DNA of 32,000 bases from Alkalilimnicola ehrlichii MLHE-1 (GCF_000014785.1 NC_008340.1:1560001-1592000), one strand, 5' to 3'. Positions 14,684 through 31,914 are shown, counted from the first letter of the stretch. Numbers and translations: made by a program. Notes: generated from the letters alone by a model not told the origin.

Positions 14684-15190
14684 TCAGCGGCGTTCCTGGA
14701 TCATGGCCGCCAGTTCATCCCGCAGCTCCGGGTCGGTGTCGAGCGCGGTGGCGATCTCGGAATACTCCGGTACGCTCAGGCCGCGGTTCTCGATCGCTTC
14801 GACCATCTCATCGTTGGCCTGCTGTTGCAGGTCCCGGGCCTGGTCTGGGTCCTCGGTGCCCTCCAGGCGTTGCGTGTAGTCCTCCTGGATCTCCGTAATG
14901 TCGATGTAGGCATCGGCGAACTGTTCCAGGCTCTGGTCATCGAAGTCGTGCTGGGGGGCACCTGCGCCCATGCCAGGCTGCTCCTGCATGCCGCCTTGCT
15001 GCTGCTGATCCATGCCGCCCTGGCGCTGCTGATCCATCCCGCCCTGTTGCTGTTGCTGCTGCTCCATCCCTTGCTGCCGGTCCATGCCTTGGGGATCGTC
15101 CTGCATGCCGGTTTGGCCGATGGCCATGCCGGAGGCGAGCAGCAGGGAGGAGAAGAGGGTCAACGTCGGTGCGAGCTTACGAATCGTCAT
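14684..15190 (-). CDS. Secreted DUF4168-domain protein with N-terminal periodic Met/Gln-rich repeat region
   Basis: Signal peptide MTIRKLAPTLTLFSSLLLASGMA. About 50 aa of (Q/R)QGGMDQQ-type repeats. The C-terminal roughly 85 aa (LEQFADAYIDITEIQEDY...EMVEAIENRGLSVPEYSEI...DPELRDEL) resembles Pfam DUF4168. SD GGAGG lies 5 nt before the ATG. Confidence 0.8.
   Translation of the reverse strand: MTIRKLAPTLTLFSSLLLASGMAIGQTGMQDDPQGMDRQQGMEQQQQQQGGMDQQRQGGMDQQQQGGMQEQPGMGAGAPQHDFDDQSLEQFADAYIDITEIQEDYTQRLEGTEDPDQARDLQQQANDEMVEAIENRGLSVPEYSEIATALDTDPELRDELAAMIQERR
14978..15097 (-). repeat. Tandem 24-nt (8-codon) imperfect repeats inside the DUF4168 gene
   Basis: Units start at 14978, 15002, 15026, 15050 and 15074. 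The two central units (15002-15025 and 15026-15049) differ at 3 of 24 nt. Each unit encodes one Met (plus-strand CAT GCC/CCC). Confidence 0.6.
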
Positions 15191-15237
15191 GTGGGCCTCC
15201 TGAGGCTTGCGATTGACAATGAATTCGGCCTGAGTTT

Positions 15238-15253
15238 TGCAAGCTTCCTGCCA
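15238..15253 (-). promoter_or_regulatory. sigma54 (-24/-12) promoter driving the DUF4168 gene
   Basis: The minus strand reads TGGCAGGAAGCTTGCA against the consensus TGGCAC-N5-TTGCW, matching 15 of 16 positions with correct GG-N10-GC spacing. It lies about 48 nt upstream of the ATG. A sigma54 activator is encoded divergently. Confidence 0.7.
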
Positions 15254-15364
15254 ACCAGGTGATGAAAACGGAACGGGAGGGTAAGTGACTGAACATAAAG
15301 GGACGCGTTTTCAGGGTCTCGTCGGGGCGCCGCCCTGGCGGCTAGGAACCCAGAACGGGGAGGG

Positions 15365-15400
15365 TGTGTCGTATAGGCACATGTGTCAGAAAGGACAGCA
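15365..15400. promoter_or_regulatory. Candidate enhancer (UAS) dyads for the sigma54 activator
   Basis: TGTGTC-N5-GGCACA (15365-15381) is immediately followed by TGTGTC-N6-GACAGCA (15382-15400). These lie 112-147 bp upstream of the -24/-12 element. By eye only. Confidence 0.3.
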
Positions 15401-15403
15401 CCC

Positions 15404-16903
15404 ATGACGCTGACCCGGTTCGTCAGACGGGCCTACAGCTTGCGACTGGCGCTCATCCTCCAGGTTCTGGTGCCCCTGGCGCTCCTGCTGGCGGCTGCCA
15501 CCTGGGTGGGCATGAAGGCATTGGAGTCGAGCCTGGAGGAACGCTTGGAGGAGGACGTCCAGCTGATCGCACGGGCAATACGGCTGCCGGTGAGTCATAG
15601 CCTCGAGCGGGAGGAGGAGGAAGCCGTGCGCCAGGCGCTGGAATCGGTCTTCACCATCGGCCGTGTCTATGGGGCCTACGTCTATGACCGACGAGGTGAG
15701 CAGGTGGCGGCGGTCGGCGCCGTGAAGCCCTCAGCGGCCGAACGCAATCGGCTTCAGGCCCTGGCCGAGGAGGGGCGGGATACCGGGGAGTACGAGTTGA
15801 TTGAGGGCCGCCAGGTTTACTCCTACTTCATCCCCCTGGTGGATACCGGCGGCCGAATCAGCGGGCTGCTGCAGGTCACGCGGCGGCAGAGCGACTTTGC
15901 CGATTACGTCAGTGGCATCCAGCGCCAGGCCGGTCTGGCCGCACTACTGACCACCCTGATCATCGGCGCCCTGGTGCTCGTGGGGCACCGTACCGCCATA
16001 GGGCGCCATATGGCGCAGCTCAGCCACAGCATGGCGCAAGTGGAGGCCGGCAATCGAGGCCACCGGGCCCGGGAGCAGGGCCCCCGGGAACTGCGCCAAC
16101 TCTCCGGGGCTTACAATCAAATGCTCGACAGCATCCAAAGAGCCGAACAGGAATTGCTGGAGCGGCAACGGCGGGAGGCGGAGCTTGAGCGGGCGCTGGC
16201 AAGCTCGAAGCGGCTGGCAGCGCTGGGGCGGTTATCAGCCGGTGTGGCCCACGAGCTGGGCACGCCCCTGAGTGTGATCGACGGTCAGAGCCAGCGCGGT
16301 TTGCGGGATCCTGATCTATCGCCGCCAGCGTCCAAGGCCTTCCGCCGCATTCGCAGCGAAGTGGATCGCATGAGTCAAATCGTGCAGCAGCTCCTGGACT
16401 TTGGCCGGCCATCGAACGGCGAGTGGCGGATGCTGACCGTGCGCGATCTGGTCCAACGCGTCGCGCACACCCAGATGGAGTCGGATCGGGCGCGCGGGGC
16501 CCGCATCGATTGGGTCCCGCCGGCCGAGGACGGGTTGATGGTCCGCGGGCACCCGATGCGCCTGGAGCAGGCCCTGACCAACTTGGTTCAGAACGCGATT
16601 CACGCGGCCAATGGGGGCTGCGTGCGCATCCGTTGGGGGCGGGTCGGAGACCGGGTGGCCCTGTGGGTCGAGGACGACGGGCCGGGCGTACCCGAGGGGG
16701 ATCGGGCGCGGCTGTTCGAGCCTTTTTTCACCACCAAGCCGGTTGGCGAGGGGACGGGGCTGGGTTTGGCGGTGGTCCATGGTATTGCACAGGAGCACGG
16801 TGGCGACGTGAGGCTGCTCCCCGACAGTGAGCTGGGAGGGGCCTGTTTCCGTCTGTCCCTGCCAGCGGCAGATGAGCAACAGAAGGATGAAGGGTCATCA
16901 TGA
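15404..16903 (+). CDS. Sensor histidine kinase (TM-periplasmic domain-TM-HAMP-HisKA-HATPase), ZraS/NtrB-class
   Basis: Two TM segments flank a periplasmic domain of about 150 aa. H-box GVAHELGTPLS, N-box LVQNAIHA, G1 DDGPGV, G2 GTGLGLAV. I prefer the ATG at 15404 (AAGGA 9 nt upstream) over the track's GTG at 15383. The stop overlaps the RR start (ATGA). Confidence 0.88.
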   Translation: MTLTRFVRRAYSLRLALILQVLVPLALLLAAATWVGMKALESSLEERLEEDVQLIARAIRLPVSHSLEREEEEAVRQALESVFTIGRVYGAYVYDRRGEQVAAVGAVKPSAAERNRLQALAEEGRDTGEYELIEGRQVYSYFIPLVDTGGRISGLLQVTRRQSDFADYVSGIQRQAGLAALLTTLIIGALVLVGHRTAIGRHMAQLSHSMAQVEAGNRGHRAREQGPRELRQLSGAYNQMLDSIQRAEQELLERQRREAELERALASSKRLAALGRLSAGVAHELGTPLSVIDGQSQRGLRDPDLSPPASKAFRRIRSEVDRMSQIVQQLLDFGRPSNGEWRMLTVRDLVQRVAHTQMESDRARGARIDWVPPAEDGLMVRGHPMRLEQALTNLVQNAIHAANGGCVRIRWGRVGDRVALWVEDDGPGVPEGDRARLFEPFFTTKPVGEGTGLGLAVVHGIAQEHGGDVRLLPDSELGGACFRLSLPAADEQQKDEGSS

Positions 16904-18321
16904 GTCGAACGGATATTGCCTCCCAGAGGATCCTGTTAGTCGAGGATGACCAGGGGCTTCGGGATCTGCTGCACGAGGAGTTCGAAGACAGCGGGGCGCA
17001 GGTGCAGGCGGTCGCCGCCGCTGAGCAGGCCGCACCCCTGCTGCTTGCTTGGGAACCGGATCTGGTGGTCAGCGACCTGCGCCTGCCCGGTGCGGATGGC
17101 ATGGCACTGCTGGCTCAGGCACGCGAGCTGCACGTGCCGCCGGCGTTCCTGATCATTACCGCGTTTGGCAGCATCGACCAGGCGGTGGAGGCGCTAAAGG
17201 CGGGGGCCGACGAGTTTCTCACCAAACCCCTCGACCTGGAGCACCTGATGCTCTGTGTCAACCGACTCCTGGACACCCGGCGGCTACGGGGCGAAGTGCA
17301 GCGCTTCCGGAAGCTTCTGGATGAGCCGGAGTTCCACGGCATGGTTGGGAACAGTCGCGCAATGCGGGTGCTCTGTGACCAGATCAAGCGGCTGGCCCGG
17401 GGCACGGGACCGGTGCTCATCCTGGGCGAGAGCGGCTCCGGCAAGGAATTGGTCGCGCGGGCGATCCATCAGGAGAGCGAGCGCGCAGCCGCCCCCTTCC
17501 AGGCCGTAAACTGTGCGGGTATCCCCTCGGAGTTGCTCGAGAGCGAGTTCTTCGGCCACGAGGCCGGTGCCTTCACCGGTGCCCAGCGGGCACACAAGGG
17601 GCTGTTCCGACAGGCGGACGGCGGCACCCTGTTCCTGGATGAGATCGGCGAGATGCCCCTGGCGTTGCAGGCCAAGCTCCTCCGGGTGCTGCAGGATGGG
17701 GTGATCCGGCCGGTTGGGGGGCAAAGGGACTATGCGGTGGACGTGCGGGTGGTCTGCGCCACCCACCGGGATATCGAGGAGCGGGTGGCGGAGGGCAGCT
17801 TCCGCGAGGACCTCTTTTACCGCCTGGAGACCTTTACCCTTCAAGTGCCCCCGTTGCGCGACCGTGAAGGCGATGCGGAGTTGTTGGCCATGCGCTTTCT
17901 CAGCCGCTTCGCTGCCCGTTTGGGGCGCGAGGAGATCACCGGTTTCAGCGGCGAGGCGCTCCAGCGACTGCGCGCCTACGATTATCCGGGCAACATCCGG
18001 GAGCTGGAAAACGCCGTGGAGCGTGCCGTCACCTTCTGCGACGGCAGTGAAATCCGCACCGAGCACCTGCCCGCCCGGATGCGGGCGGCGGGGCCCGCCG
18101 GCGTGCGGACCGGCGAGGGTGATGGCGCGCCGGGCGTCACCGGGGAGCACATCCTGCAGCAACTGGTTTCAGGAGGACCGGTCCTGCCCACGCTGCAGGA
18201 GTTGGAGCGCCGGTACATCGACTACGTCCTGGCGCAGGTGGATGGCAATAAACGGCGTGCCGCGGCCATCCTGGACATCGGTCGCCGCACCCTGTACCGG
18301 CGGCTGGAGACCGGGGATTAA
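16900..18321 (+). CDS. sigma54-dependent response regulator (REC-AAA+-Fis HTH), NtrC/ZraR family
   Basis: REC domain with DLVVSDLRLPG. Walker A GESGSGKE. The sigma54-contact loop GAFTGA is present (EAGAFTGAQ), as is FLDEIGEM (Walker B). C-terminal HTH is NKRRAAAILDIGRRTLYRRL. Confidence 0.93.
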   Translation: MSRTDIASQRILLVEDDQGLRDLLHEEFEDSGAQVQAVAAAEQAAPLLLAWEPDLVVSDLRLPGADGMALLAQARELHVPPAFLIITAFGSIDQAVEALKAGADEFLTKPLDLEHLMLCVNRLLDTRRLRGEVQRFRKLLDEPEFHGMVGNSRAMRVLCDQIKRLARGTGPVLILGESGSGKELVARAIHQESERAAAPFQAVNCAGIPSELLESEFFGHEAGAFTGAQRAHKGLFRQADGGTLFLDEIGEMPLALQAKLLRVLQDGVIRPVGGQRDYAVDVRVVCATHRDIEERVAEGSFREDLFYRLETFTLQVPPLRDREGDAELLAMRFLSRFAARLGREEITGFSGEALQRLRAYDYPGNIRELENAVERAVTFCDGSEIRTEHLPARMRAAGPAGVRTGEGDGAPGVTGEHILQQLVSGGPVLPTLQELERRYIDYVLAQVDGNKRRAAAILDIGRRTLYRRLETGD

Positions 18322-20415: not shown

Positions 20416-20982
20416 TCAGTAGGCGTAGGCCGCCTCTAGCATCTGGATGTCAAAGCCGTCGTTGTCGCTATGTAGACCGGCGTTGGAGGTGTGCTGGAGA
20501 CGGTAGGTGAGACTGAAGCCGGGGCTGGCCTGCCACCTCAGTGCCAAGTGGGAGGTGAACTGGAAGGGGCCGCCGAGGGCCCGCGAGCCGAGCCGGCGCC
20601 CGGAGATCAGCGTGGGTGCAGTGCCCAGCCCCAGGGCCAGCGGCAGGTCCCGGTGGCCGATCCAGAGGCCGGGTCCGGCACTGAGCTTGTAAAGGCGGTC
20701 GCCCTGGTAACTGACCCTGGCCAACTGCACCCCGCCGTAAGCCAGAACGGTCCACCCGGAGGCCGTCTCCATCAACGACCGTTGCCAGGGTCGCCAGTGC
20801 AGGCCGAAATAGCGGGCGCCGGATGCCCCCCCAAGCCCGCCACCCGCGCGCACACCCAGTTCCCCGGGATCGGCCGTCTGGGCGGTGGCGTCTCCGCTGA
20901 CAAAGATCAGGGCCGCGGCCAGCAGGCCGGCGGCGACGGTGCCCCGAAACGGCGCCCTGTAGCGCGTGTGAATCGCTCTCAT
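20416..20982 (-). CDS. Acyloxyacyl hydrolase / PagL-like lipid A 3-O-deacylase (outer-membrane beta-barrel)
   Basis: Signal peptide, alternating beta-strand pattern, conserved C-terminal HTSNAG (His...Ser catalytic pair) and a terminal aromatic residue. Confidence 0.75.
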   Translation of the reverse strand: MRAIHTRYRAPFRGTVAAGLLAAALIFVSGDATAQTADPGELGVRAGGGLGGASGARYFGLHWRPWQRSLMETASGWTVLAYGGVQLARVSYQGDRLYKLSAGPGLWIGHRDLPLALGLGTAPTLISGRRLGSRALGGPFQFTSHLALRWQASPGFSLTYRLQHTSNAGLHSDNDGFDIQMLEAAYAY

Positions 20983-24173: not shown

Positions 24174-26447
24174 TCAGGCCCGAGATCCTGCAGCCGATTT
24201 TCCCGCGGGTCTGCTCCGCTTGAGCAGCACCGAGTTACCGATCACCGAGAGTGAACTCGCCGTCATGGCAATGACGCCGATCATCGGGTGGAGCAGGCCG
24301 ATGGCGGCGATAGGGATGGCGGCGAGGTTGTAACCCCAGGCCCAGAATAGGTTCTGCACGATCTTGCGGAAGGTCAGCCGGGAGAGTTCCACGGCCTCGA
24401 CCACCTTGGTGAGTTCGCCGCTGACCAGCGTAACGTCGGCCGCTTCGATGGCGACATCCGCCCCGGCGCCGATGGCGATGCCCACGTTGGCCTGCTTGAG
24501 CGCCGGGGCGTCGTTGATGCCGTCGCCCACCATGGCCACGTGTTCGCCGTAGCGTGCCTGGAGTTGCCGGATGGCATCCACCTTGCCCTCGGGCAGCACA
24601 CCGGCCTGCACCTCGTCCAGCCCCACCTGCTCGGCGACCGCTTGGGCCGTGCGCTCGTTGTCGCCGGTGACCATGACGCAGACAATGCCGAGCCCATGCA
24701 GGGCCTCAATCGCTGCGGCTGAGTCGTCCTTGATGGTGTCGGCCACCGCCACGACGCCGGCCGGCCGATCGCCGATGGCCACCAGCATTGCGGTCTTGCC
24801 CGCGCCCTCGAGTGCGGTGAGCGGCTCCTCTAACGCGCTGATCGCCACGCCGTGCTCGGTGAGCAGGCGGCGGCTGCCGACCAGCACCCGCTCGCCGTCA
24901 AGCTGCGCCTCCACACCGCGGGCGGTGTGGGAATTGAAGCCGGTAGCGCTGCCAATGGACAGCCCGCGCGCCTTCGCGCCCTGGACGATTGCGTCCGCCA
25001 GCGGGTGGGCGGAGCCCGCTTCCACGGCCGCCGCCGCAACGAGCACCTGTTTCTCAGTGAACCCCTGCGCCGGCAGGGCATCGGTCAGGGCCGGCTCGCC
25101 TTTGGTGATGGTGCCGGTCTTGTCCAAGACAATGGCCTTGATGTCCTTGAGGCTCTGGATCGCCGAGCCGGAGCGGATCAACACCCCCCTTTCGGCCCCC
25201 ATCCCCGAGCCCACCATCAGCGCCGTGGGGGTCGCCAAGCCCAGGGCGCAGGGGCAGGCGATGACCAGCACCGCAATGGCGGCGAGCATGGCCAGGATGA
25301 TCGGCGGTTGGCCCGAATCCACCCAGGGCAGGAAGCCCTCGCCCCAGACGAGAATGGGGGAGAGCGGGCCGCTGAAAAACAGCCAGGCGATGAACGCGCC
25401 CCCCGCGATCACCAGCACTGCCGGCACGAAGCGGGCGGTGATGCGGTCGGCCAGTTCCTGCACCGGTACCCGCGAGCCCTGGGCCTCTTCCACGAGCCGG
25501 ATGACTTGCGCCAGGAAGGTGTCCTTGCCCACCCGGGTGGCACGCACCTTGAGCAACCCCTGCTGGTTGATGGTGGCACCGAGCACGGTGGCCCCGGCCG
25601 CCTTCTCCACCGGCACGGATTCGCCGGTGGCAATGGACTCGTCCACGGTGCTCTCACCCTCGAGCACCACACCGTCTGTGGGTACTTTCTCGCCAGGGCG
25701 CACAATCATCACATCGCCCGCATTGAGCTGCTTGACCGGCACCTCCACTTCCTCGCCATCGCGCTCCACGCGGGCGGTCTTCGCGCCCATGTCCAGCAAC
25801 TTCCGTATGGCCGAGGAGGCCTGCCCCTTGGCGCGGTACTCCAGATAGCGCCCCAGCATGTGGAAGGCCATGATCGTGGCCGCCATCTCGATGAACGAGG
25901 TCATCGGGTAGACAAACCCCACCAGACCGATGAAGTAGGGCGGCAGACTGCCCATGGAGATGAGCACGTCCATGTTCAGTTGCCCGGACTTCAGCGACCG
26001 CCACGCCGAGCGGTGGGTGGCCGCCCCGCCGGCCAGAAAAACCACGGGGAAAGCCAGCACCGCGATGAGGACGAGATACCCCGGGATGGGTTGCCAGAAC
26101 ATGTGGGGCATCATCAGAGTCATGATGAGGGTGGTGGGTACGGCGGCAATCCACAGTCGCTTCCATGCCTGGCTCAGGTAGGCTTCCTCGATTTCCGCAT
26201 CGTCCGCGGCATCGCTGCTGCCCTCCTCGCTGACCGAGGCGACGTCGTAGCCGGCGTCCTCTACTGCCCGGCGGATGCGGCTGCTGTCCAGCTTGTCGGT
26301 CTCGTAGCGGACCTGCACACGGTGCGCGGCGATGTTGGTGGTGACGTCCACCACCCCGTCGAGCTTCCGCAGGGACGTGGCAATGATTCCTGCGCAGTGG
26401 TCGCTGCCCATGCCGGGGACCGTCACTCGAAGCTCGCTGTTATCCAT
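24174..26447 (-). CDS. copA: Copper(I)-translocating P1B-1-type ATPase
   Basis: One N-terminal HMA-like domain. TGES, CPC in TM4 ([13 protein letters not shown]), DKTGT, TM5 YN (WGYN), TM6 M..SS (MTASS), GDGINDAP. Confidence 0.93.
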
Positions 26448-26487
26448 GGTGTAATCGCCTGTTCAACGGTGTTCGGGTAGACCGCGC

Positions 26488-26820
26488 TCATTCCCCCAGA
26501 TCCTGCTTTCGCTGCAGGTACTCCTCTCTGTCGATCTCGCCGCGCGCGTAACGTTGCTTGAGGATGTCCGGGGCATCAGACGCCTGCGGCTTGTCCGACC
26601 GCGAGTCGCCAGGGCCGCCCAGCCAGCGGATCAGCAGCACGATTAGGGCGATAACCCCACCCCAGAAGATGATCATCATCAGACCGCCGAACAGCATGTG
26701 ACCCCAGCCCGATGCGGGATGCCAGAAGCCAGGGTGGTCCACGAATCGTTGAGCGAGCGCGGGGGATGCCATCGGCGCGGTCGCCAGAAATGCGATGAGT
26801 GCGATCATGCGGTGTTTCAT
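26488..26820 (-). CDS. SHOCT-domain small membrane protein
   Basis: Signal peptide, short His/Trp/Met-containing ectodomain (HPGFWHPASGWGHM) and one TM. The C-terminus ILKQRYARGEIDREEYLQRKQDL is SHOCT (PF09851-like). The ATG at 26820 is preceded by AGGAGGAAG. It ends 40 nt upstream of copA. Confidence 0.75.
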   Translation of the reverse strand: MKHRMIALIAFLATAPMASPALAQRFVDHPGFWHPASGWGHMLFGGLMMIIFWGGVIALIVLLIRWLGGPGDSRSDKPQASDAPDILKQRYARGEIDREEYLQRKQDLGE

Positions 26821-26834
26821 CCCACTTCCTCCTG

Positions 26835-27323
26835 TCAGTGAGCAATTTGCCGGCGGACCAGCCATACAATCAGCGGCGGGAGCAGGATCCATTGCATCAC
26901 CGGCAGGACTCCGGTCCCCAGTATCGGCAACACAGGCATGTGGTCAGCATAAGCCCACCGCTGTGCGATCTCCGTGGCGTGCCATTCCAATACAAAGGTA
27001 ACGAGCAGCCCCGCAGCGATGAACACAGTGAGTTGTCGTGCTGCCGGGCGGCAAACCCACCAGCGGTTGCGCCATACTGCTGCGACCAGCCAGAAGCTGG
27101 ACAACGCGATCAGCGCGTCGCCGCCAGTCGCTCGCGTGCAGAAGAGGATCGCATCCCAGTGATTCGCCTCCGCCATCGATTGGAAAAATGGAACCTGCAG
27201 AAACTCCCATGGGTAGTTCAGCAGAAAGGCGAACAGCAGCACATTCAACTCCGGCTGCCGCGTGATGCGGTCCGCCAGGCCAGTGGCGTTCAGCCGGTGG
27301 TCCTTAGTGTTGCCTCCCACCAT
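26835..27323 (-). CDS. Hypothetical 4-TM membrane protein, family not recognised
   Basis: Four hydrophobic segments, coding-like codon usage, and 14 nt from the SHOCT gene. The start is uncertain. The ATG at 27323 overlaps the upstream gene by 20 nt with a tight SD. An internal GTG (LNVLLFAF) has GGAG 6 nt upstream. Confidence 0.55.
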   Translation of the reverse strand: MVGGNTKDHRLNATGLADRITRQPELNVLLFAFLLNYPWEFLQVPFFQSMAEANHWDAILFCTRATGGDALIALSSFWLVAAVWRNRWWVCRPAARQLTVFIAAGLLVTFVLEWHATEIAQRWAYADHMPVLPILGTGVLPVMQWILLPPLIVWLVRRQIAH

Positions 27324-27906
27324 GGCCTCCGTGGCGGTACATGTCGCCCCGCCGTTCGCCCATGCCTTCACGCATCCGCTCTCGCTGCTCGTCGGTGAGT
27401 ATGTCCTGCATGTCGTTCCGCAGGCGGATGCGGTCGACCATCATGTCGCCGTGGAGGTCCGCCATGCGGTCGTGCAGTTCACGGACGGCATCGGGGTCAG
27501 GGCGCTCTGCACCCAGGAGGGCCTGCATCTCTTCGCGCAGGTCCATCATCTCGGCCATGCGGCGGAACTGCTTGTGACGGTGCTCGCTGCGGCGCTCGCG
27601 CAGTTGAGCTTGCTGGTCTTCATCCAGATCCAACCCGCGCATCATGCCCACACCGCCGTGCATGCCCATACCACCCTGGCCACCGCCATGCATACCGCGA
27701 CTCATCGTGCCCTGCATGCCGCCGGACGCGCCGCCCATCATCGGGCAGTCCTGCATCATGCCCATGCCACCGCCCTGTATGCCTTGAGCGCCGTGGCCGC
27801 CGCCCATCATGCCTTGCATGCCCTGAGCGCCGGCGATGCCGACAACGCCTGCCCCAACGAGCAGGACCAGACCGAGTGCTGCCTTGTAACCGCGATTCAT
27901 CGTCAT
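27304..27906 (-). CDS. Periplasmic CpxP/Spy/ZraP-family protein with Met/Gly/His-rich N-terminal region and His-rich C-terminus
   Basis: Signal peptide. About 65 aa of GMQGMMGGGHG / GMGMHGG-type sequence. Two LTXXQ-type motifs (LDEDQQAQL and LTDEQRERM) in a helical domain. The tail is HGGHGGRQH. SD AGGAGAG lies 7 nt before the ATG. Confidence 0.8.
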   Translation of the reverse strand: MTMNRGYKAALGLVLLVGAGVVGIAGAQGMQGMMGGGHGAQGIQGGGMGMMQDCPMMGGASGGMQGTMSRGMHGGGQGGMGMHGGVGMMRGLDLDEDQQAQLRERRSEHRHKQFRRMAEMMDLREEMQALLGAERPDPDAVRELHDRMADLHGDMMVDRIRLRNDMQDILTDEQRERMREGMGERRGDMYRHGGHGGRQH

Positions 27907-28047: not shown

Positions 28048-28467
28048 TCAGACGCGTAGGCGCTGGGTCAATAGATAGACCGGGACAGCGGGTAGTGCGG
28101 AGGTGGCAGGCGACCCGTGGCGTTTTGCACCAGGGTCTGGCAAGCGGGCATGTGCCGGGCCCAGCCGCGGGATGGCAACGCCATTATCGGCGGGTTCCAC
28201 CGACGCCGCTTCACGTGGGTCACCTAGCAGGGCCGGTCCCTTCGCAAGCGGCCCTTCATGATGGCAGAGCGGTATCTCGAAAGGACCGTGGGCACGCACG
28301 CTCGGGTCGTGTTCGGCCGTTTCGGGGGCAACGAAGGGGGCTGGCTCAGGGCATGCCAAAGCCAGGCCCATCGGCAGCAAGGCCAGCAGGATCAGCAACA
28401 CCAGCCGCCCGAAGGGCCTGGCTGGCGCTCCTCCCGCGACCGTTTCAGTGGGTTGCTGCACTTGCAT
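28048..28467 (-). CDS. Hypothetical secreted protein or lipoprotein (possible first gene of the copA-side operon)
   Basis: 139-aa ORF with GC3-rich codons. It has a hydrophobic leader ending LALAC, compatible with the PROSITE lipobox, and a PLCHHEGP motif. There is no clear SD and I recognise no family. The overlapping plus-strand ORF is Arg-rich antisense-type. Confidence 0.4.
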   Translation of the reverse strand: MQVQQPTETVAGGAPARPFGRLVLLILLALLPMGLALACPEPAPFVAPETAEHDPSVRAHGPFEIPLCHHEGPLAKGPALLGDPREAASVEPADNGVAIPRLGPAHARLPDPGAKRHGSPATSALPAVPVYLLTQRLRV

Positions 28468-28591: not shown

Positions 28592-28605
28592 TTGATCTCA
28601 ATCAA
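28592..28605. promoter_or_regulatory. Perfect FNR/CRP-family palindrome TTGAT-N4-ATCAA upstream of the cus operon
   Basis: TTGATCTCAATCAA matches the FNR consensus at 10 of 10 positions. It is centred 42.5 nt upstream of the CzcI-like ATG (28641). An extended -10-like TGTAAGACT lies at 28625-28633. The box sits in a locally AT-rich patch. Confidence 0.5.
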
Positions 28606-28640: not shown

Positions 28641-28994
28641 ATGGCTCGATCCACCTTTGCCCACATTCTTGTTCCGCTGCTCGCCGTGGCGTTTCTGCTG
28701 CTACCCCTGCACCATGCCTGGGGCGCAGCACACCATGACCATGGCGGGGCCGATACCGCGTATGCCGATGCCGTGCCTATGGCATCCAGTGCGGCGGACG
28801 ACGGCTGTGGGCAGGCAGCACCGAACGGCCAGGCGGGTGACTGTGTCTTCTGTGCCACCTGTGTATCGGTACTGGCCGCCGACTCGGCCGAGCCCATCCC
28901 ACCCCTGCCGCTGTTGACCGCGCTGTCCATCGGGCAGTCGCCATCCCGGGCTCCTGCCCCAGAGCCCCGACCTCCCAGACTGCCTCTCGCCTGA
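28641..28994 (+). CDS. Small secreted His/Cys protein, CzcI-like (DUF2946-type) leader gene of the efflux operon
   Basis: Signal peptide ending HHAWG, His cluster AAHHDHGG, central CVFCATC, and a C-terminal PEPRPPR tail resembling the PERP tail of CzcI-like proteins. It sits upstream of the cusCBA-type genes on the same strand. No SD is present. Confidence 0.6.
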   Translation: MARSTFAHILVPLLAVAFLLLPLHHAWGAAHHDHGGADTAYADAVPMASSAADDGCGQAAPNGQAGDCVFCATCVSVLAADSAEPIPPLPLLTALSIGQSPSRAPAPEPRPPRLPLA

Positions 28995-29020
28995 ACGTAG
29001 GGCGGCGCCACGCCGTTTGA

Positions 29021-29044
29021 GCGCGGTGCATCAGTGCACCGTGC
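29021..29044 (+). other. Strong hairpin/palindrome in the CzcI-like to cusC spacer
   Basis: GCGCGGTGCA-TCAG-TGCACCGTGC forms a 10-bp stem (one G-U pair) with a 4-nt loop. The core GGTGCA-N4-TGCACC is perfect. No U-tract follows. Confidence 0.4.
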
Positions 29045-29155
29045 CCAGCCCATGCGCCGCCTTGTCCTGCCGAACCCCGTGGCGGTGGCAGGACGCCTAC
29101 GAACCCACCCGATAAAGGCGGGCCCGGGAAGGGCCCTGAGGCGAGGGATACCCGT

Positions 29156-30409
29156 ATGCATTTCTTGAGTCCGGGCAGGCCAAAAGGCCTGCTGTTTGGT
29201 GTGCTGCTGGCCGCCGTGCCCGTCCTGGCACCGGCCCAGCCCGCCCTGACCCTGGAAGCGGCCGAGAACATGGCCCTTCAGGAGGAACCGACCATCGCCC
29301 GTTACCGGGAGCGGGCCGCTGCCCGGGAGGAGGCCGCTGTGGCGGCGGGCGCCCTGCCGGACCCCCTGCTGATCACCGAGCTGATGGACGTGCCCGCGGA
29401 CCGGCCGCGGCTGGACGGGGACGAGATGACCCAGTTCAAGGTGGGGCTGCGGCAGGCCTTCCCGCGGGGCCAGACCCGCACTCTCCGCCAGGAGCGAGGG
29501 GGTCTGCGGGCGAGCCAGGCCCATGCCCGGGGCGACGACGCCGAACGGGCGGCGCTCAACGCGGTGCGTCAAGCCTACTTGCGGCTCTACAACCAGCGCC
29601 GGGCCGTGGCATTGCTGGAGGGCAACCGCAGTCACTTCGAAGAATTGCTGGAAATCACGGAGCGGGCGCTGGCCGCGGGTCGTGTCTCCCGCCAGGATGT
29701 GATCCGCGCCGAGCTGGAGCTGGAGCGGCTGGAGGACCGCCTGAGCGCCGCCCGGGCGGCAGAGGCCGACGCCGAGTCGGCCTTAGCCCGCTGGATTGGT
29801 CCCCAGGCCGCGCGGCGGCCGTTGCCGGATGCGCTGCCGGAGCTAGCGCTACCGGATGACAACGGCATTGACCATCACCCCCTGTTGCAGGCCCAGGACT
29901 TGGCCGTGGCCGACCAGCGCCGGGGAGTGGATCTGGCCCGGCAGGGCTACCGGCCCGAGTGGTCGGTGGAGCTGACCTACGGGATGGCCACCGGCAATGA
30001 CATGGATGCCCCGGATCGCCTGTCCGCCATGGTGGTGCTGGACCTGCCGCTGTTCACCCGCAATCGCCAGGACCGGGATGTGGCCGCCAGCCGGCGCGAG
30101 GTGTATGCCGCCAAGCACGACCGCGAGGTGCAGCACCGCACCCTTACTCAAGCCCTGGCCAGCCAGGCGGCCCGCTGGCAGCGCCTGCGGGAGCGAGAGC
30201 GGCGCTTCGAGGAGCGGCTGCTGATCCACGCCGCCGACAATGTGGAGGCAGCGGAACAGGCCTACCGGGCGGGCACCCTGGCGTTCACCGCACTGATGCA
30301 GGCCCGCATCACCTATCTGGAAACCCACCTGGATGCCGTTCAAGTGGCCACCGACCGCCGGATGGCCCAGGCGGAACTCCTCTATCTCTCAGGAGCGACC
30401 CGGCGATGA
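29156..30409 (+). CDS. cusC: Outer-membrane efflux protein (TolC/OEP family), CusC/CzcC-like
   Basis: 417 aa. Signal peptide without a lipobox Cys. Two OEP repeats with coiled-coil Ala/Arg/Glu-rich helices. Its stop overlaps the cusB start (ATGA). Confidence 0.85.
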   Translation: MHFLSPGRPKGLLFGVLLAAVPVLAPAQPALTLEAAENMALQEEPTIARYRERAAAREEAAVAAGALPDPLLITELMDVPADRPRLDGDEMTQFKVGLRQAFPRGQTRTLRQERGGLRASQAHARGDDAERAALNAVRQAYLRLYNQRRAVALLEGNRSHFEELLEITERALAAGRVSRQDVIRAELELERLEDRLSAARAAEADAESALARWIGPQAARRPLPDALPELALPDDNGIDHHPLLQAQDLAVADQRRGVDLARQGYRPEWSVELTYGMATGNDMDAPDRLSAMVVLDLPLFTRNRQDRDVAASRREVYAAKHDREVQHRTLTQALASQAARWQRLRERERRFEERLLIHAADNVEAAEQAYRAGTLAFTALMQARITYLETHLDAVQVATDRRMAQAELLYLSGATRR

Positions 30410-31914
30410 AGTTTGTGAGCCTATTCATTGCGTTATTGATCGGTTTCGGCCTTGGCGCGGGCGCATTGTGGTTCCACCAGGGGGGCACCGCGGGGCAGGG
30501 AGGCGGCAGCAGCGAACGGGAGGTCCTTTACTACCAGCATCCGCACAACCCCACGATCCGCTCGGACGAGCCGCGCAAGGATGAGATGGGCATGGACTAC
30601 ATCCCCATCTACGCCGGTGACGAGGGCCGGGACGATGACCCGGACGTGCTGAGAATCAGCCCGGTGGTCGTCCAGAACATGGGGGTGCGCACGGCCGAAG
30701 TGGAGCGCGGTGCGCTCCACCGGCAAATCAGCACCGTGGGCTTCGTCGAGGTAGACGAGGCGGCACAATCCCATGTCCACCTGCGCACCGAAGGCTGGAT
30801 TGAGGACCTGCGCGTACGCACCACCGGCGAGCGGGTGACCGCCGGTGAGGTGCTTTTCCGGCTCTATTCGCCGGCGCTGGTCAGCGCCCAGGATGAGTTG
30901 CTGCAGACCCTGCGTCGCAACGGTAACGCCGGTCCGGCCCGGGAGCGGCTGCGGGCGCTGGGTATGCCCGCCGATGCGATCCGTCAGGTCGAACAGCAGG
31001 GCCGGGCCCTGAACCTGGTGCCCGTGAAGGCGCCCCAGGACGGCGTCGTCCAGGCACTCAATGTGGCCGAGGGGATGTTCGTGCAGCCGGGCACCGAGGT
31101 GATGAGCATCGCCGATCTGTCGCGCATCTGGGTCATCGCCGATCTGTTCGAGCACCAATCGGACGCGGTGCGCGAGGGCCTGGATGCCGAGGTCCACTTC
31201 CCTTTCCGGCCCGGCGAGACGTTGGTCGGCAGCGTGGGCTACATCTACCCGACCCTGGCCTCACCGACCCGTACCATCCGGGCCCGGATCACCCTGGATA
31301 ACCCGGACGGGCGACTCAAGCCTGGCATGTGGACCGATGTGCATATCGACGGCGAATCCACCGAACCGGTGTTGCATGTGCCCGCGGAGGCCGTGATCCG
31401 CACAGGCCGTCAGGACCGCGTGGTGACGATGGAGGAGGAAGGCCGCTTCCGCGTGCACGAGGTGCGGGTAGGGCGGCGCGCCGGCGACCGGTTGGAGATC
31501 CTCGAGGGGCTGCAGGTCGGGGCGCGCATCGTCACCTCCGGCCAGTTCCTGATCGACTCCGAGTCCTCGGTGACGGTCAGCCTGGCGCGCCTGCAGGCCG
31601 CGGCGGAAGCCGATGATGGCAGCGTCGCCGCCGAGGGCCGCATCAACCACGTGGATCCGGAGGCCCGCCAGGTCAATCTGGACCATGAGCCGATCGCGGA
31701 ACTGGGTTGGCCGGCGATGACCATGGATTTCGAGGTGGCCGAGGACGTGGCGCTGACGGATCTTGAGCCCGGTGATCCGGTGATCATCCACATCCGCGAG
31801 CGTGAGGACGAAGAGTATGTCTACGAGCTGACCCACATCGAGCGGCTGGCCGATCCGACCGGCGAGACCGATGACGCCCCCGATCACGACGCCCACACGG
31901 GCCATGACCACTGA
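30406..31914 (+). CDS. cusB: Cu(I)/Ag(I) efflux RND periplasmic adaptor (CusB) with fused C-terminal CusF-like metallochaperone domain and His-rich tail
   Basis: N-terminal YYQHPHNPTIRSDEPRKDEMGMDYIPIY parallels E. coli CusB YWYDPMYPNTRFDKPGKSPFMDMDLVPKY. HlyD-type barrel-sandwich and beta-barrel regions are present. The C-terminal LDHEPIAELGWPAMTMDF parallels CusF IHHDPIAAVNWPEMTMRF. Confidence 0.9.
   Translation: MKFVSLFIALLIGFGLGAGALWFHQGGTAGQGGGSSEREVLYYQHPHNPTIRSDEPRKDEMGMDYIPIYAGDEGRDDDPDVLRISPVVVQNMGVRTAEVERGALHRQISTVGFVEVDEAAQSHVHLRTEGWIEDLRVRTTGERVTAGEVLFRLYSPALVSAQDELLQTLRRNGNAGPARERLRALGMPADAIRQVEQQGRALNLVPVKAPQDGVVQALNVAEGMFVQPGTEVMSIADLSRIWVIADLFEHQSDAVREGLDAEVHFPFRPGETLVGSVGYIYPTLASPTRTIRARITLDNPDGRLKPGMWTDVHIDGESTEPVLHVPAEAVIRTGRQDRVVTMEEEGRFRVHEVRVGRRAGDRLEILEGLQVGARIVTSGQFLIDSESSVTVSLARLQAAAEADDGSVAAEGRINHVDPEARQVNLDHEPIAELGWPAMTMDFEVAEDVALTDLEPGDPVIIHIREREDEEYVYELTHIERLADPTGETDDAPDHDAHTGHDH

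Follow-up and report, generated by a model that had tools for sequence, protein, structure and literature searches.

The exit of Cu(I) from a P1B pump and its subsequent handling in the periplasm are well understood for few systems, of which the hand-over from CopA to CusF is an example, and copper and silver resistance clusters also encode PcoE and SilE, secreted Met/His-rich proteins that buffer metal. Here, a copper locus of Alkalilimnicola ehrlichii MLHE-1 is compared with such systems. It lies in a stretch of 32,000 nucleotides (nt), referred to in full as the window, and comprises four genes with the short names LTXXQ, TM4, SHOCT and copA:

27304-27906, minus strand: LTXXQ gene, encoding a Met/Gly-rich periplasmic protein of the CpxP/Spy family, 200 amino acids (aa)
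26835-27323, minus strand: TM4 gene, encoding a four-helix membrane protein, 162 aa from an ATG with GGAGG before the start
26488-26820, minus strand: SHOCT gene, encoding a bitopic SHOCT protein, 110 aa from an ATG with GGAGGAAG before the start
24174-26447, minus strand: copA, encoding a predicted P1B-1 Cu(I)/Ag(I) ATPase, 757 aa

Like the CopA/CusF/CusCBA system of Escherichia coli, the locus combines a P1B-1-type pump bearing CPC, YN and MxxSS with a secreted Met-rich protein, and a cusCB(F)A set is encoded divergently. However, the candidate partner of the pump has a CpxP/Spy-type helical fold instead of the CusF beta-barrel, and any hand-over of metal to it is putative; in addition, CueR and CopZ are missing, the HMA domain of CopA carries SDHC instead of CxxC, and the pump is extended by a periplasmic loop of 19-20 aa. 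Relative to CpxP, Spy, ZraP and CnrX, the LTXXQ protein shares a homologous C-terminal region of about 100 residues, secretion, and an association with metal or envelope stress, but differs in its 64-residue Met/Gly/His arm with CPMM, in lacking sigma-54 control of the ZraSR type, and in being encoded with a P-type ATPase instead of a two-component system or an extracytoplasmic function (ECF) sigma factor. PcoE and SilE are likewise secreted and rich in Met and His, which makes a buffering role for the Met-rich arm plausible by analogy, although there is no sequence relationship and the arm is joined to a folded CpxP-like domain. Operons of the composition MerR-CopA-cupredoxin-DUF2933-ICMT have been described in Alteromonas and other marine Gammaproteobacteria (PMC8478169). 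These also place copA with small envelope genes on copper islands, and DUF2933 occurs in the presumed ancestral form of the present operon (loci L001-L003, described below); in the window, however, the CpxP-like, TM4 and SHOCT proteins replace cupredoxin and ICMT, MerR is lacking, and DUF2933 is reduced to its last codons. Because copA operons with small envelope genes are on record, the kind of system is already known, and the present genes are annotated in the public genome. What appears to be new is the association between a particular CopA clade and a Met-rich CpxP-like protein, the standing of TM4 as a large nameless family of metal islands, and the operon itself as a reduced fusion of two modules; the set had initially been called undescribed, and the literature searched yielded no paper describing this gene combination.

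With a probability put slightly above even, the four-gene locus is a Cu(I)/Ag(I) envelope-defence operon in a regulator-less island, in which two modules that occur apart in other halophilic Gammaproteobacteria have been fused. The first module would consist of the Met-rich CpxP-like protein followed by a CopA of the clade marked by GMGSDHCAG and an enlarged loop. CopA would expel Cu(I) from the cytoplasm, and the CPMM-bearing arm of the CpxP-like protein would capture it in the periplasm near the pump exit; the protein would then buffer Cu(I) or hand it to CusF/CusCBA, would possibly dock on the enlarged M3-M4 loop of CopA, and may protect unfolded envelope proteins as a Spy-like holdase. The second module would be TM4, which elsewhere usually stands in an Lgt-TM4-Cls arrangement or adjoins CopA, and whose periplasm-facing polar pocket might bind metal or aid lipid or lipoprotein maintenance at the outer face of the inner membrane. 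The lipid/lipoprotein option would fit because TM4 is often coupled to Lgt and Cls (cardiolipin synthase) and because copper impairs lipoprotein acylation in E. coli (PMC6538781).

The evidence for the first module comes from two collections of loci. The LTXXQ subfamily was sampled in metagenome contigs through the LTXXQ protein alone, giving 80 loci, 54 of them with enough downstream sequence; a further 79 genomic loci were collected through TM4, with CopA counted within 7 kilobases (kb). The next same-strand gene downstream of LTXXQ encodes CopA in 23 of the 54 usable metagenome loci and DUF411 in 13; many of the 23 LTXXQ-CopA contigs are near-identical, with spacing classes that suggest about 10 distinct lineages. 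In the TM4-derived collection, 9 of 14 CopAs of the clade have an LTXXQ gene no more than 1.5 kb away, as against 1 of 19 other CopAs (Fisher p = 4e-4, uncorrected for relatedness). LTXXQ followed by CopA is also found in the Halomonas/Franzmannia loci L021-24, L042 and L078, and the order in L004 is SHOCT-LTXXQ-CopA. The link between CopAs of the GMGSDHC clade and Met-rich CpxP-like proteins is real and recurrent, not obligatory.

All four genes can be regarded as real, constrained genes under purifying selection, since the ratio of nonsynonymous to synonymous substitution rates (dN/dS) against the closest relative, L002, is 0.24 for LTXXQ, 0.25 for TM4, 0.42 for SHOCT and 0.22 for CopA. An independent gene caller applied to Logan assemblies of the same organism returned genes of 200, 161, 110 and 757 aa, the TM4 start in the public call lying one codon later (161 instead of 162 aa, the 162-aa form having no exact match on record), and a Shine-Dalgarno-like sequence precedes each of the three small genes. 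The layout given in the initial annotation is reproduced by these coordinates throughout: LTXXQ and TM4 overlap by 20 nt, TM4 and SHOCT are separated by 14 nt, and SHOCT and copA by 40 nt. The terminator scan, in agreement with the same annotation, found no terminator-like site at any of the three gene junctions; the sole site inside the four-gene span is a weak stem of 5 base pairs within copA, and the next lies beyond the last gene:

24032-24012, minus strand: terminator-like hairpin of 8 pairs (6 GC), 142 nt past the copA stop codon and before ycgN

The shared strand, the short or overlapping junctions and their freedom from terminator-like sites suggest that the four genes are co-transcribed as one operon.

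The product of the first gene had been described at the outset as a CpxP/Spy-fold protein with a long Met/Gly/His-rich N-terminus and a His-rich tail, a description that is borne out by the composition and by profile searches. Pfam assigns it to PF13801 Metal_resist (E 6.9e-13; 49.3 bits against a cutoff of 29.2) and to PF07813 LTXXQ (E 2.6e-10; 41.3 bits against a cutoff of 24.3), and both families anticipated for the operon, PF07813 for gene 1 and PF09851 for gene 3, were found above cutoff. Its parts are as follows:

residues 1-27, minus strand: signal peptide
residues 28-91 (nt 27634-27825), minus strand: Met/Gly/His-rich segment with the conserved CPMM
residues ~92-189 (nt 27340-27633), minus strand: CpxP-like helical domain
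residues 190-200 (nt 27304-27339), minus strand: tail derived from DUF2933, by DNA alignment with L002

Met, Gly and His make up 70% of the first 64 residues of the mature protein (15 M, 27 G, 3 H), a composition that suggests that the arm binds Cu(I) in the periplasm. The LTXXQ-type motifs comprise an exact LTDEQ at residue 170 and a variant LDEDQ at residue 94. Against solved structures, the subfamily profile matched CpxP (3ITF, E 6.8e-10) and Spy (3OEO, E 5.9e-6), and ZraP (3LAY) at only E 0.29. The protein is not an equivalog of CpxP or Spy, as the NCBIfam equivalog scores are far under the cutoffs (NF009391, 49 against 148 bits; NF007769, 48 against 174; NF007687, 37.5 against 160); NCBI names the 100% identical A. 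ehrlichii MLHE-1 protein 'Spy/CpxP family protein refolding chaperone'. Shared across an alignment of 13 relatives are the CPMM of the Met-rich arm, the core RPDPDAV..LHG..MM, LTDEQR and a terminus rich in His. The His-rich tail of the window protein, YRHGGHGGRQH, is present but non-native: the DNA matches the L002 LTXXQ gene up to GACATG and thereafter the last DUF2933 codons. Both the tail and the 20-nt overlap with TM4 can therefore be traced to DUF2933, a gene that overlaps the TM4 start in L001-L003 and was lost here except for its 3' end, to which LTXXQ became fused in frame.

Membership in the CpxP/Spy/ZraP and Metal_resist (CnrX-type) families also admits a role as a signalling accessory, in which the protein, as with CpxP, ZraP and CnrX, would detect metal in the periplasm and act on a sensor kinase or an anti-sigma factor governing the island. 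An island without its own regulator would need some sensing input, and OmpR-type response regulators or kinases lie near a minority of LTXXQ loci. However, the window holds no kinase or regulator adjacent to the gene, the LTXXQ-CopA loci L103-L146 give no response regulator, kinase or MerR matches, and a MerR gene is found in none of the 80 LTXXQ loci. Features of a ZraP-type system are missing as well: unlike zraP, the operon has no sigma-54 -24/-12 element upstream (between 27.9 and 28.7 kb), and the island has no regulator. Together with the low CpxP and Spy equivalog scores, and with a long Met/Gly arm that resembles a metal-buffering segment and not a single sensing site, these observations make a signalling role improbable.

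The envelope-defence reading, by contrast with a signalling one, assigns the protein to the exit side of a pump, and the pump itself is distinctive. CopA scores 533.3 bits against the NCBIfam copper P-type ATPase model TIGR01511 (cutoff 397) and 604 bits against TIGR01525 (cutoff 346), contains E1-E2, Hydrolase and HMA (PF00403, E 1.8e-13) domains, and has Archaeoglobus fulgidus CopA (3J09, E 1.5e-170) as its best solved relative. Its landmarks are:

nt 26388-26414, minus strand: HMA motif GMGSDHCAG, in a single HMA domain
residues 274-277, minus strand: TGES
residues 361-380 (nt 25308-25367), minus strand: insertion of 20 aa in the periplasmic M3-M4 loop, preceding the CPC helix
residues 398-400 (nt 25248-25256), minus strand: CPC, in M4
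residues 442-446 (nt 25110-25124), minus strand: DKTGT
residues 706-707, minus strand: YN, in M5, within GYNLAAIP (residues 705-712, nt 24312-24335)
residues 728-732 (nt 24252-24266), minus strand: MTASS, the MxxSS of M6

CPC, YN, MxxSS, DKTGT and TGES form the motif set that defines the P1B-1 subgroup, and the presence of the full set indicates that CopA is probably a P1B-1 Cu(I)/Ag(I) ATPase that exports Cu(I) from the cytoplasm. Its HMA site departs from the canonical GMxCxxC in that the first Cys is replaced by Ser (SxxC type), although membership in P1B-1 does not require the canonical site. Every complete CopA in loci linked to a Met-rich LTXXQ protein carries the exact GMGSDHCAG, once or twice. 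The loop insertion, RPILxWGxxFLPWV(N/D)P of 19-20 aa, is present in all 15 clade CopAs aligned and absent from six CopAs of other TM4 loci; a canonical CxxC was found in two of these six, and the motif pattern searched had no match in the remaining four. Identity to the window CopA is 67% or more within the clade, as against 36-49% for the others. GMGSDHCAG and the enlarged M3-M4 loop are thus markers of one distinct CopA clade, and a literature search for the motif string 'GSDHCAG' found no paper containing it.

A more specific joint reading is possible but tentative, standing clearly below even: CopAs of the clade with GMGSDHCAG and a Trp-rich loop of 19-20 aa would work with a dedicated secreted CpxP/Spy-fold protein whose CPMM arm docks at the loop and takes Cu(I) at the pump exit, and TM4 would separately represent a new, widespread family acting at the periplasmic face in metal stress. 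If true, this would be a new kind of pair of ATPase and periplasmic chaperone, built on the scaffold of a protein-folding chaperone. The CopA clade, set apart by its unusual metal-binding domain and added periplasmic loop, is a lead in itself, and the co-inherited Met-rich CpxP-like protein would make pump-to-chaperone hand-over testable in a second, unrelated scaffold.

TM4 differs from the LTXXQ protein in its neighbours. The initial annotation recognised no family for it, and the Pfam and NCBIfam scans were indeed empty; among 28 TM4 relatives (scan at E<=10), the only weak Pfam family is DUF2809 (PF10990), sub-threshold in six with a best E of 0.042, and the window TM4 has none. The AlphaFold 2 (AF2) model (predicted local distance difference test score, pLDDT, 86) has a short N-terminal helix followed by four transmembrane helices, and a Foldseek search against the PDB returned nothing at E<=0.001, the best TM-scores being about 0.2-0.4. 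The family is nevertheless large, with 227 close relatives, 2433 representative clusters at E<=1e-3, and 121 plasmid records, including cyanobacteria, Deinococcus and roseobacters, all named 'hypothetical protein'. Longer representatives are mostly apparent mis-called open reading frames, and one carries a fused piece of a Mur ligase. Over 64 diverse members, E40 and Y125 are invariant, and W39, Q43, C62, D69, W89, E113, W123, M129, P130, Q144 and W145 are nearly so. By the positive-inside rule, both termini and the R-rich loop of residues 85-94 are predicted to be cytoplasmic. The conserved polar residues E40, Q43, C62, D69, E113, Y125, M129 and Q144 would then mostly lie on the periplasmic side, within that half of the bundle and in the two periplasmic loops.

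The 79 TM4 loci contain CopA in 33 cases, multicopper oxidase in 20, MerR in 18, CusA in 17 and two-component pairs in 13, as well as Lgt and a Cys-rich four-helix protein in 8 each and DUF411 in 6; Cls forms a cluster of 11 loci. Other neighbours are an epimerase-VKOR-SPW protein, methyltransferases, MerR, histidine kinases, or nothing recognisable. In all, TM4 is a general membrane component of copper and metal islands and probably not a specific CopA subunit. This bears directly on the initial annotation, in which the CpxP-like, TM4 and SHOCT proteins look like a periplasm-facing accessory set for the ATPase; in its full form this would be one dedicated complex acting with CopA and dependent on it. 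The tight packing of the four genes, with its overlapping and short junctions, and an order kept in the close relatives L001-L003 speak for such a complex, as do the adjacency of TM4 to CopA in several unrelated lineages (CopA directly upstream on the same strand in L027, L054, L061 and L067, and convergent in L025, L026, L029 and L040) and a DUF2078/SHOCT gene that overlaps the TM4 start on the Glaciecola plasmid pGLAAG01. However, 46 of the 79 TM4 loci have no CopA within 7 kb (some contigs being short), TM4 stands alone at the edge of the copper island in Aquisalimonas sp. 2447, and in Halomonas it is translationally coupled to Cls and not to CopA. SHOCT genes occur in just 12 of the 79 TM4 loci and 5 of the 80 LTXXQ loci, and gene order and content vary freely among lineages. 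Conserved association with copA thus holds for the LTXXQ gene, if not always in the same order, and fails for TM4 and SHOCT, and a single complex of all three proteins is unlikely.

The coupling of TM4 to Cls admits another origin for it, namely that TM4, together with SHOCT, belongs to a lipid/lipoprotein-maintenance module of the form Lgt-TM4-Cls that acts against the damage done by copper to the inner membrane and to lipoprotein acylation, and was left over in the window after the loss of cls with no mechanistic tie to CopA. TM4 is followed directly by Cls in L021-24, L042 and L053 (with a 4-nt overlap in L021-23, from Halomonas), TM4-SHOCT-Cls is found in L001-3, Lgt lies upstream of TM4 in L024, L042, L078 and the metagenome loci L117, L119 and L123, and L123 has the full Lgt-TM4-Cls order. 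In the window, cls is cleanly absent at the SHOCT-copA spacer, and the effect of copper on lipoprotein acylation (PMC6538781) points the same way. On the other hand, TM4 has stayed whole and under constraint with no cls next to it (dN/dS 0.25), both Lgt and Cls are missing from many TM4 loci, and fold and family searches show no similarity of TM4 to any known lipid enzyme; a leftover of this kind is rather unlikely, though it has to be reckoned with. In either case the recurrence of TM4 in metal islands and on plasmids from Proteobacteria to cyanobacteria, often beside Lgt and cardiolipin synthase, is a lead suggesting that copper stress may be tied to the upkeep of membranes or lipoproteins. 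As a separate observation, a fusion protein of about 850 aa, combining an NAD-dependent epimerase, VKOR and SPW repeats, adjoins TM4 in L083 (8678-11230, Glaciecola plasmid pGLAAG01), L041, L050, L052, L055-57 and L079, across Alpha-, Beta- and Gammaproteobacteria.

The third gene encodes a protein with a PF09851 match at residues 86-108 (E 1.3e-8; 34.7 bits against a cutoff of 27). Its predicted topology is a signal peptide, a short periplasmic segment, one transmembrane helix and a cytoplasmic SHOCT domain, and the segment to which attention had been drawn initially is present, on what is probably the periplasmic side:

residues 29-42 (nt 26695-26736), minus strand: His/Trp/Met segment HPGFWHPASGWGHM of the SHOCT protein

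Alignment with relatives shows the form HG(F/M)WHPASGWGH to be conserved across Ectothiorhodospiraceae and Aquisalimonas. Of the SHOCT genes in TM4 loci, those of three loci (L001-L003) and one plasmid adjoin TM4; homologues on roseobacter plasmids come after a response regulator-kinase pair in metal islands. The published description leaves the function of SHOCT open (PMC3581485). In the present collections, SHOCT is a lineage-restricted companion and an occasional neighbour only.

The history of the arrangement can be approached through the closest relatives, the Ectothiorhodospiraceae metagenome-assembled genomes (MAGs) L001-L003, whose TM4 is 87-90% identical to that of the window. An order resembling the window is confined to these three, with an added small SHOCT gene, DUF2933 and cls. 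L002 reads p139 homologue - small SHOCT - LTXXQ - DUF2933 - TM4 - SHOCT - Cls - CopA, the last with two HMA domains; L001 is without LTXXQ, which in L003 is found downstream of copA. Relative to L002, the window retains only a remnant of the small SHOCT gene, has LTXXQ fused in frame to the end of DUF2933, lacks cls (about 1.6 kb) with a clean junction inside the SHOCT-copA spacer, and has one HMA domain in CopA instead of two. The spacer records the third of these differences:

26448-26487, minus strand: SHOCT-copA spacer of 40 nt, whose 5' half aligns with the SHOCT end and cls start of L002 and whose 3' half aligns with the cls end and copA start

Synonymous divergence (dS) from L002 ranges from 0.14 for SHOCT to 0.86 for CopA. 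In addition, the window CopA shares 82% identity with the Aquisalimonas type and 72% with L002; for the window TM4, the corresponding values are 63-67% and 87%. Because dS is uneven and CopA is closer to Aquisalimonas, the operon is a mosaic, its copA representing another allele type than the remaining genes. A simple deletion as the origin of the loss of cls was considered but softened, as the CopA and TM4 identities differ and recombinational replacement is equally possible. LTXXQ-CopA and (Lgt-)TM4-Cls stand elsewhere as separate, often convergent units (L104, L112-L119, L123, L021-24), so that a joining of the two modules into a single operon in this lineage is the simplest account; the window version of that operon is probably a reduced mosaic derivative. 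A side observation from L001 (3926-4450) concerns the same region: LTXXQ is apparently deleted there, with Met-rich coding remnants fused after the small SHOCT start, which suggests that the operon region is prone to deletion between repeated Gly/Met/His-coding stretches.

All four differences from the L002-type operon being losses, the window could also hold a decaying remnant, with small genes that became non-functional after deletions and only copA of consequence; if the small genes were dispensable, the locus would merely be one more variable copper island. This is very improbable, given that every reading frame is unbroken and preceded by a good ribosome-binding site, that dN/dS is 0.24-0.42 for the three small genes, and that the DUF2933 deletion is in frame.

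A number of points weigh against a fused envelope-defence operon as set out above. Co-transcription is drawn solely from spacing and terminator-free junctions, metal binding by the Met-rich arm solely from composition, and the choice between loss in the window and gain by its relatives from parsimony. The near-identity of metagenome loci means that the counts overstate independent events. The LTXXQ subfamily also occurs without CopA, DUF411 being the next gene in 13 of 54 loci, and on the Halomonas plasmid KO116 an LTXXQ gene lies between copCD and DUF411; conversely, clade CopAs have no adjacent LTXXQ gene in L001, L014 and L034, in the last of which MerR stands in front of the clade CopA. 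As for TM4, one conserved Cys and one conserved Met do not make a typical Cu(I) site, and no fold or family match guides its function.

The copper cluster forms a short island, made up of the cop operon and a divergent cus operon, between ycgN-dxs and a 202-aa gene/prfC, with housekeeping surroundings (uvrC, pgsA, hemN, fabB, fabA, dxs, ycgN). As the initial annotation held, neither MerR/CueR nor a free CopZ is encoded in the window, and the same applies to the remaining island up to prfC. A sigma-70-like site was not found in 23.4-29.2 kb, a weak negative in a genome of 67% guanine plus cytosine (GC). GC content is 0.63-0.65 over 26-29 kb as against 0.67-0.73 in the flanks; this dip and the housekeeping flanks fit a horizontally acquired island, and no integrase or repeat was seen. 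The features upstream of the LTXXQ gene are:

28048-28467, minus strand: p139, small secreted or membrane-anchored protein of 139 aa, 141 nt upstream of the LTXXQ gene
28641-31914, plus strand: divergent cus operon, consisting of p117, cusC and cusB(CusF)
28641-28994, plus strand: p117, His/Cys-rich, with a weak DUF2946 match (E 0.055)
29156-30409, plus strand: cusC
30406-31914, plus strand: cusB with a fused C-terminal CusF domain (PF11604, residues 407-474)

Beyond the window follow cusA and then a free cusF (L169, 2484-2816), giving the Cus system two CusF domains. The operon may begin with p139, as a fifth gene. Gene calling on the Logan assemblies returned it; it is homologous and syntenic to the gene at the same position in L002 (34% identity, E 8e-15), and has a conserved HGP..P(L/I)CHH motif and YLLTQRLRV at the C-terminus; it matches no Pfam or NCBIfam family, and a search of 5.8 billion clusters returned the identical copy only. 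The small genes p117 and p139 stand divergently at the heads of the cus and cop operons, each with an N-terminal hydrophobic segment and His/Cys motifs, and their role is possibly regulatory or metal-binding. The 173-nt region between them holds a perfect inverted repeat, TTGAT-TGAG-ATCAA (28592-28605), which could be an operator for the missing regulator.

Two further observations concern the wider window. About 9 kb from the copper operon, positions 14684-18321 have a ZraPSR-like layout, in which genes for a histidine kinase and a sigma-54-dependent response regulator are divergent from a DUF4168 gene:

14684-15190, minus strand: secreted DUF4168 protein with a Met/Gln-rich N-terminus
15238-15253, minus strand: sigma-54 -24/-12 element with one mismatch, TGGCAGGAAGCTTGCA, 48 nt upstream of the DUF4168 start codon
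15383-16903: histidine kinase
16900-18321: sigma-54-dependent response regulator

Finally, a gene for the lipid A 3-O-deacylase PagL (20416-20982), unrelated to the copper operon, lies between lytic transglycosylase and glycine-transporter-family genes.

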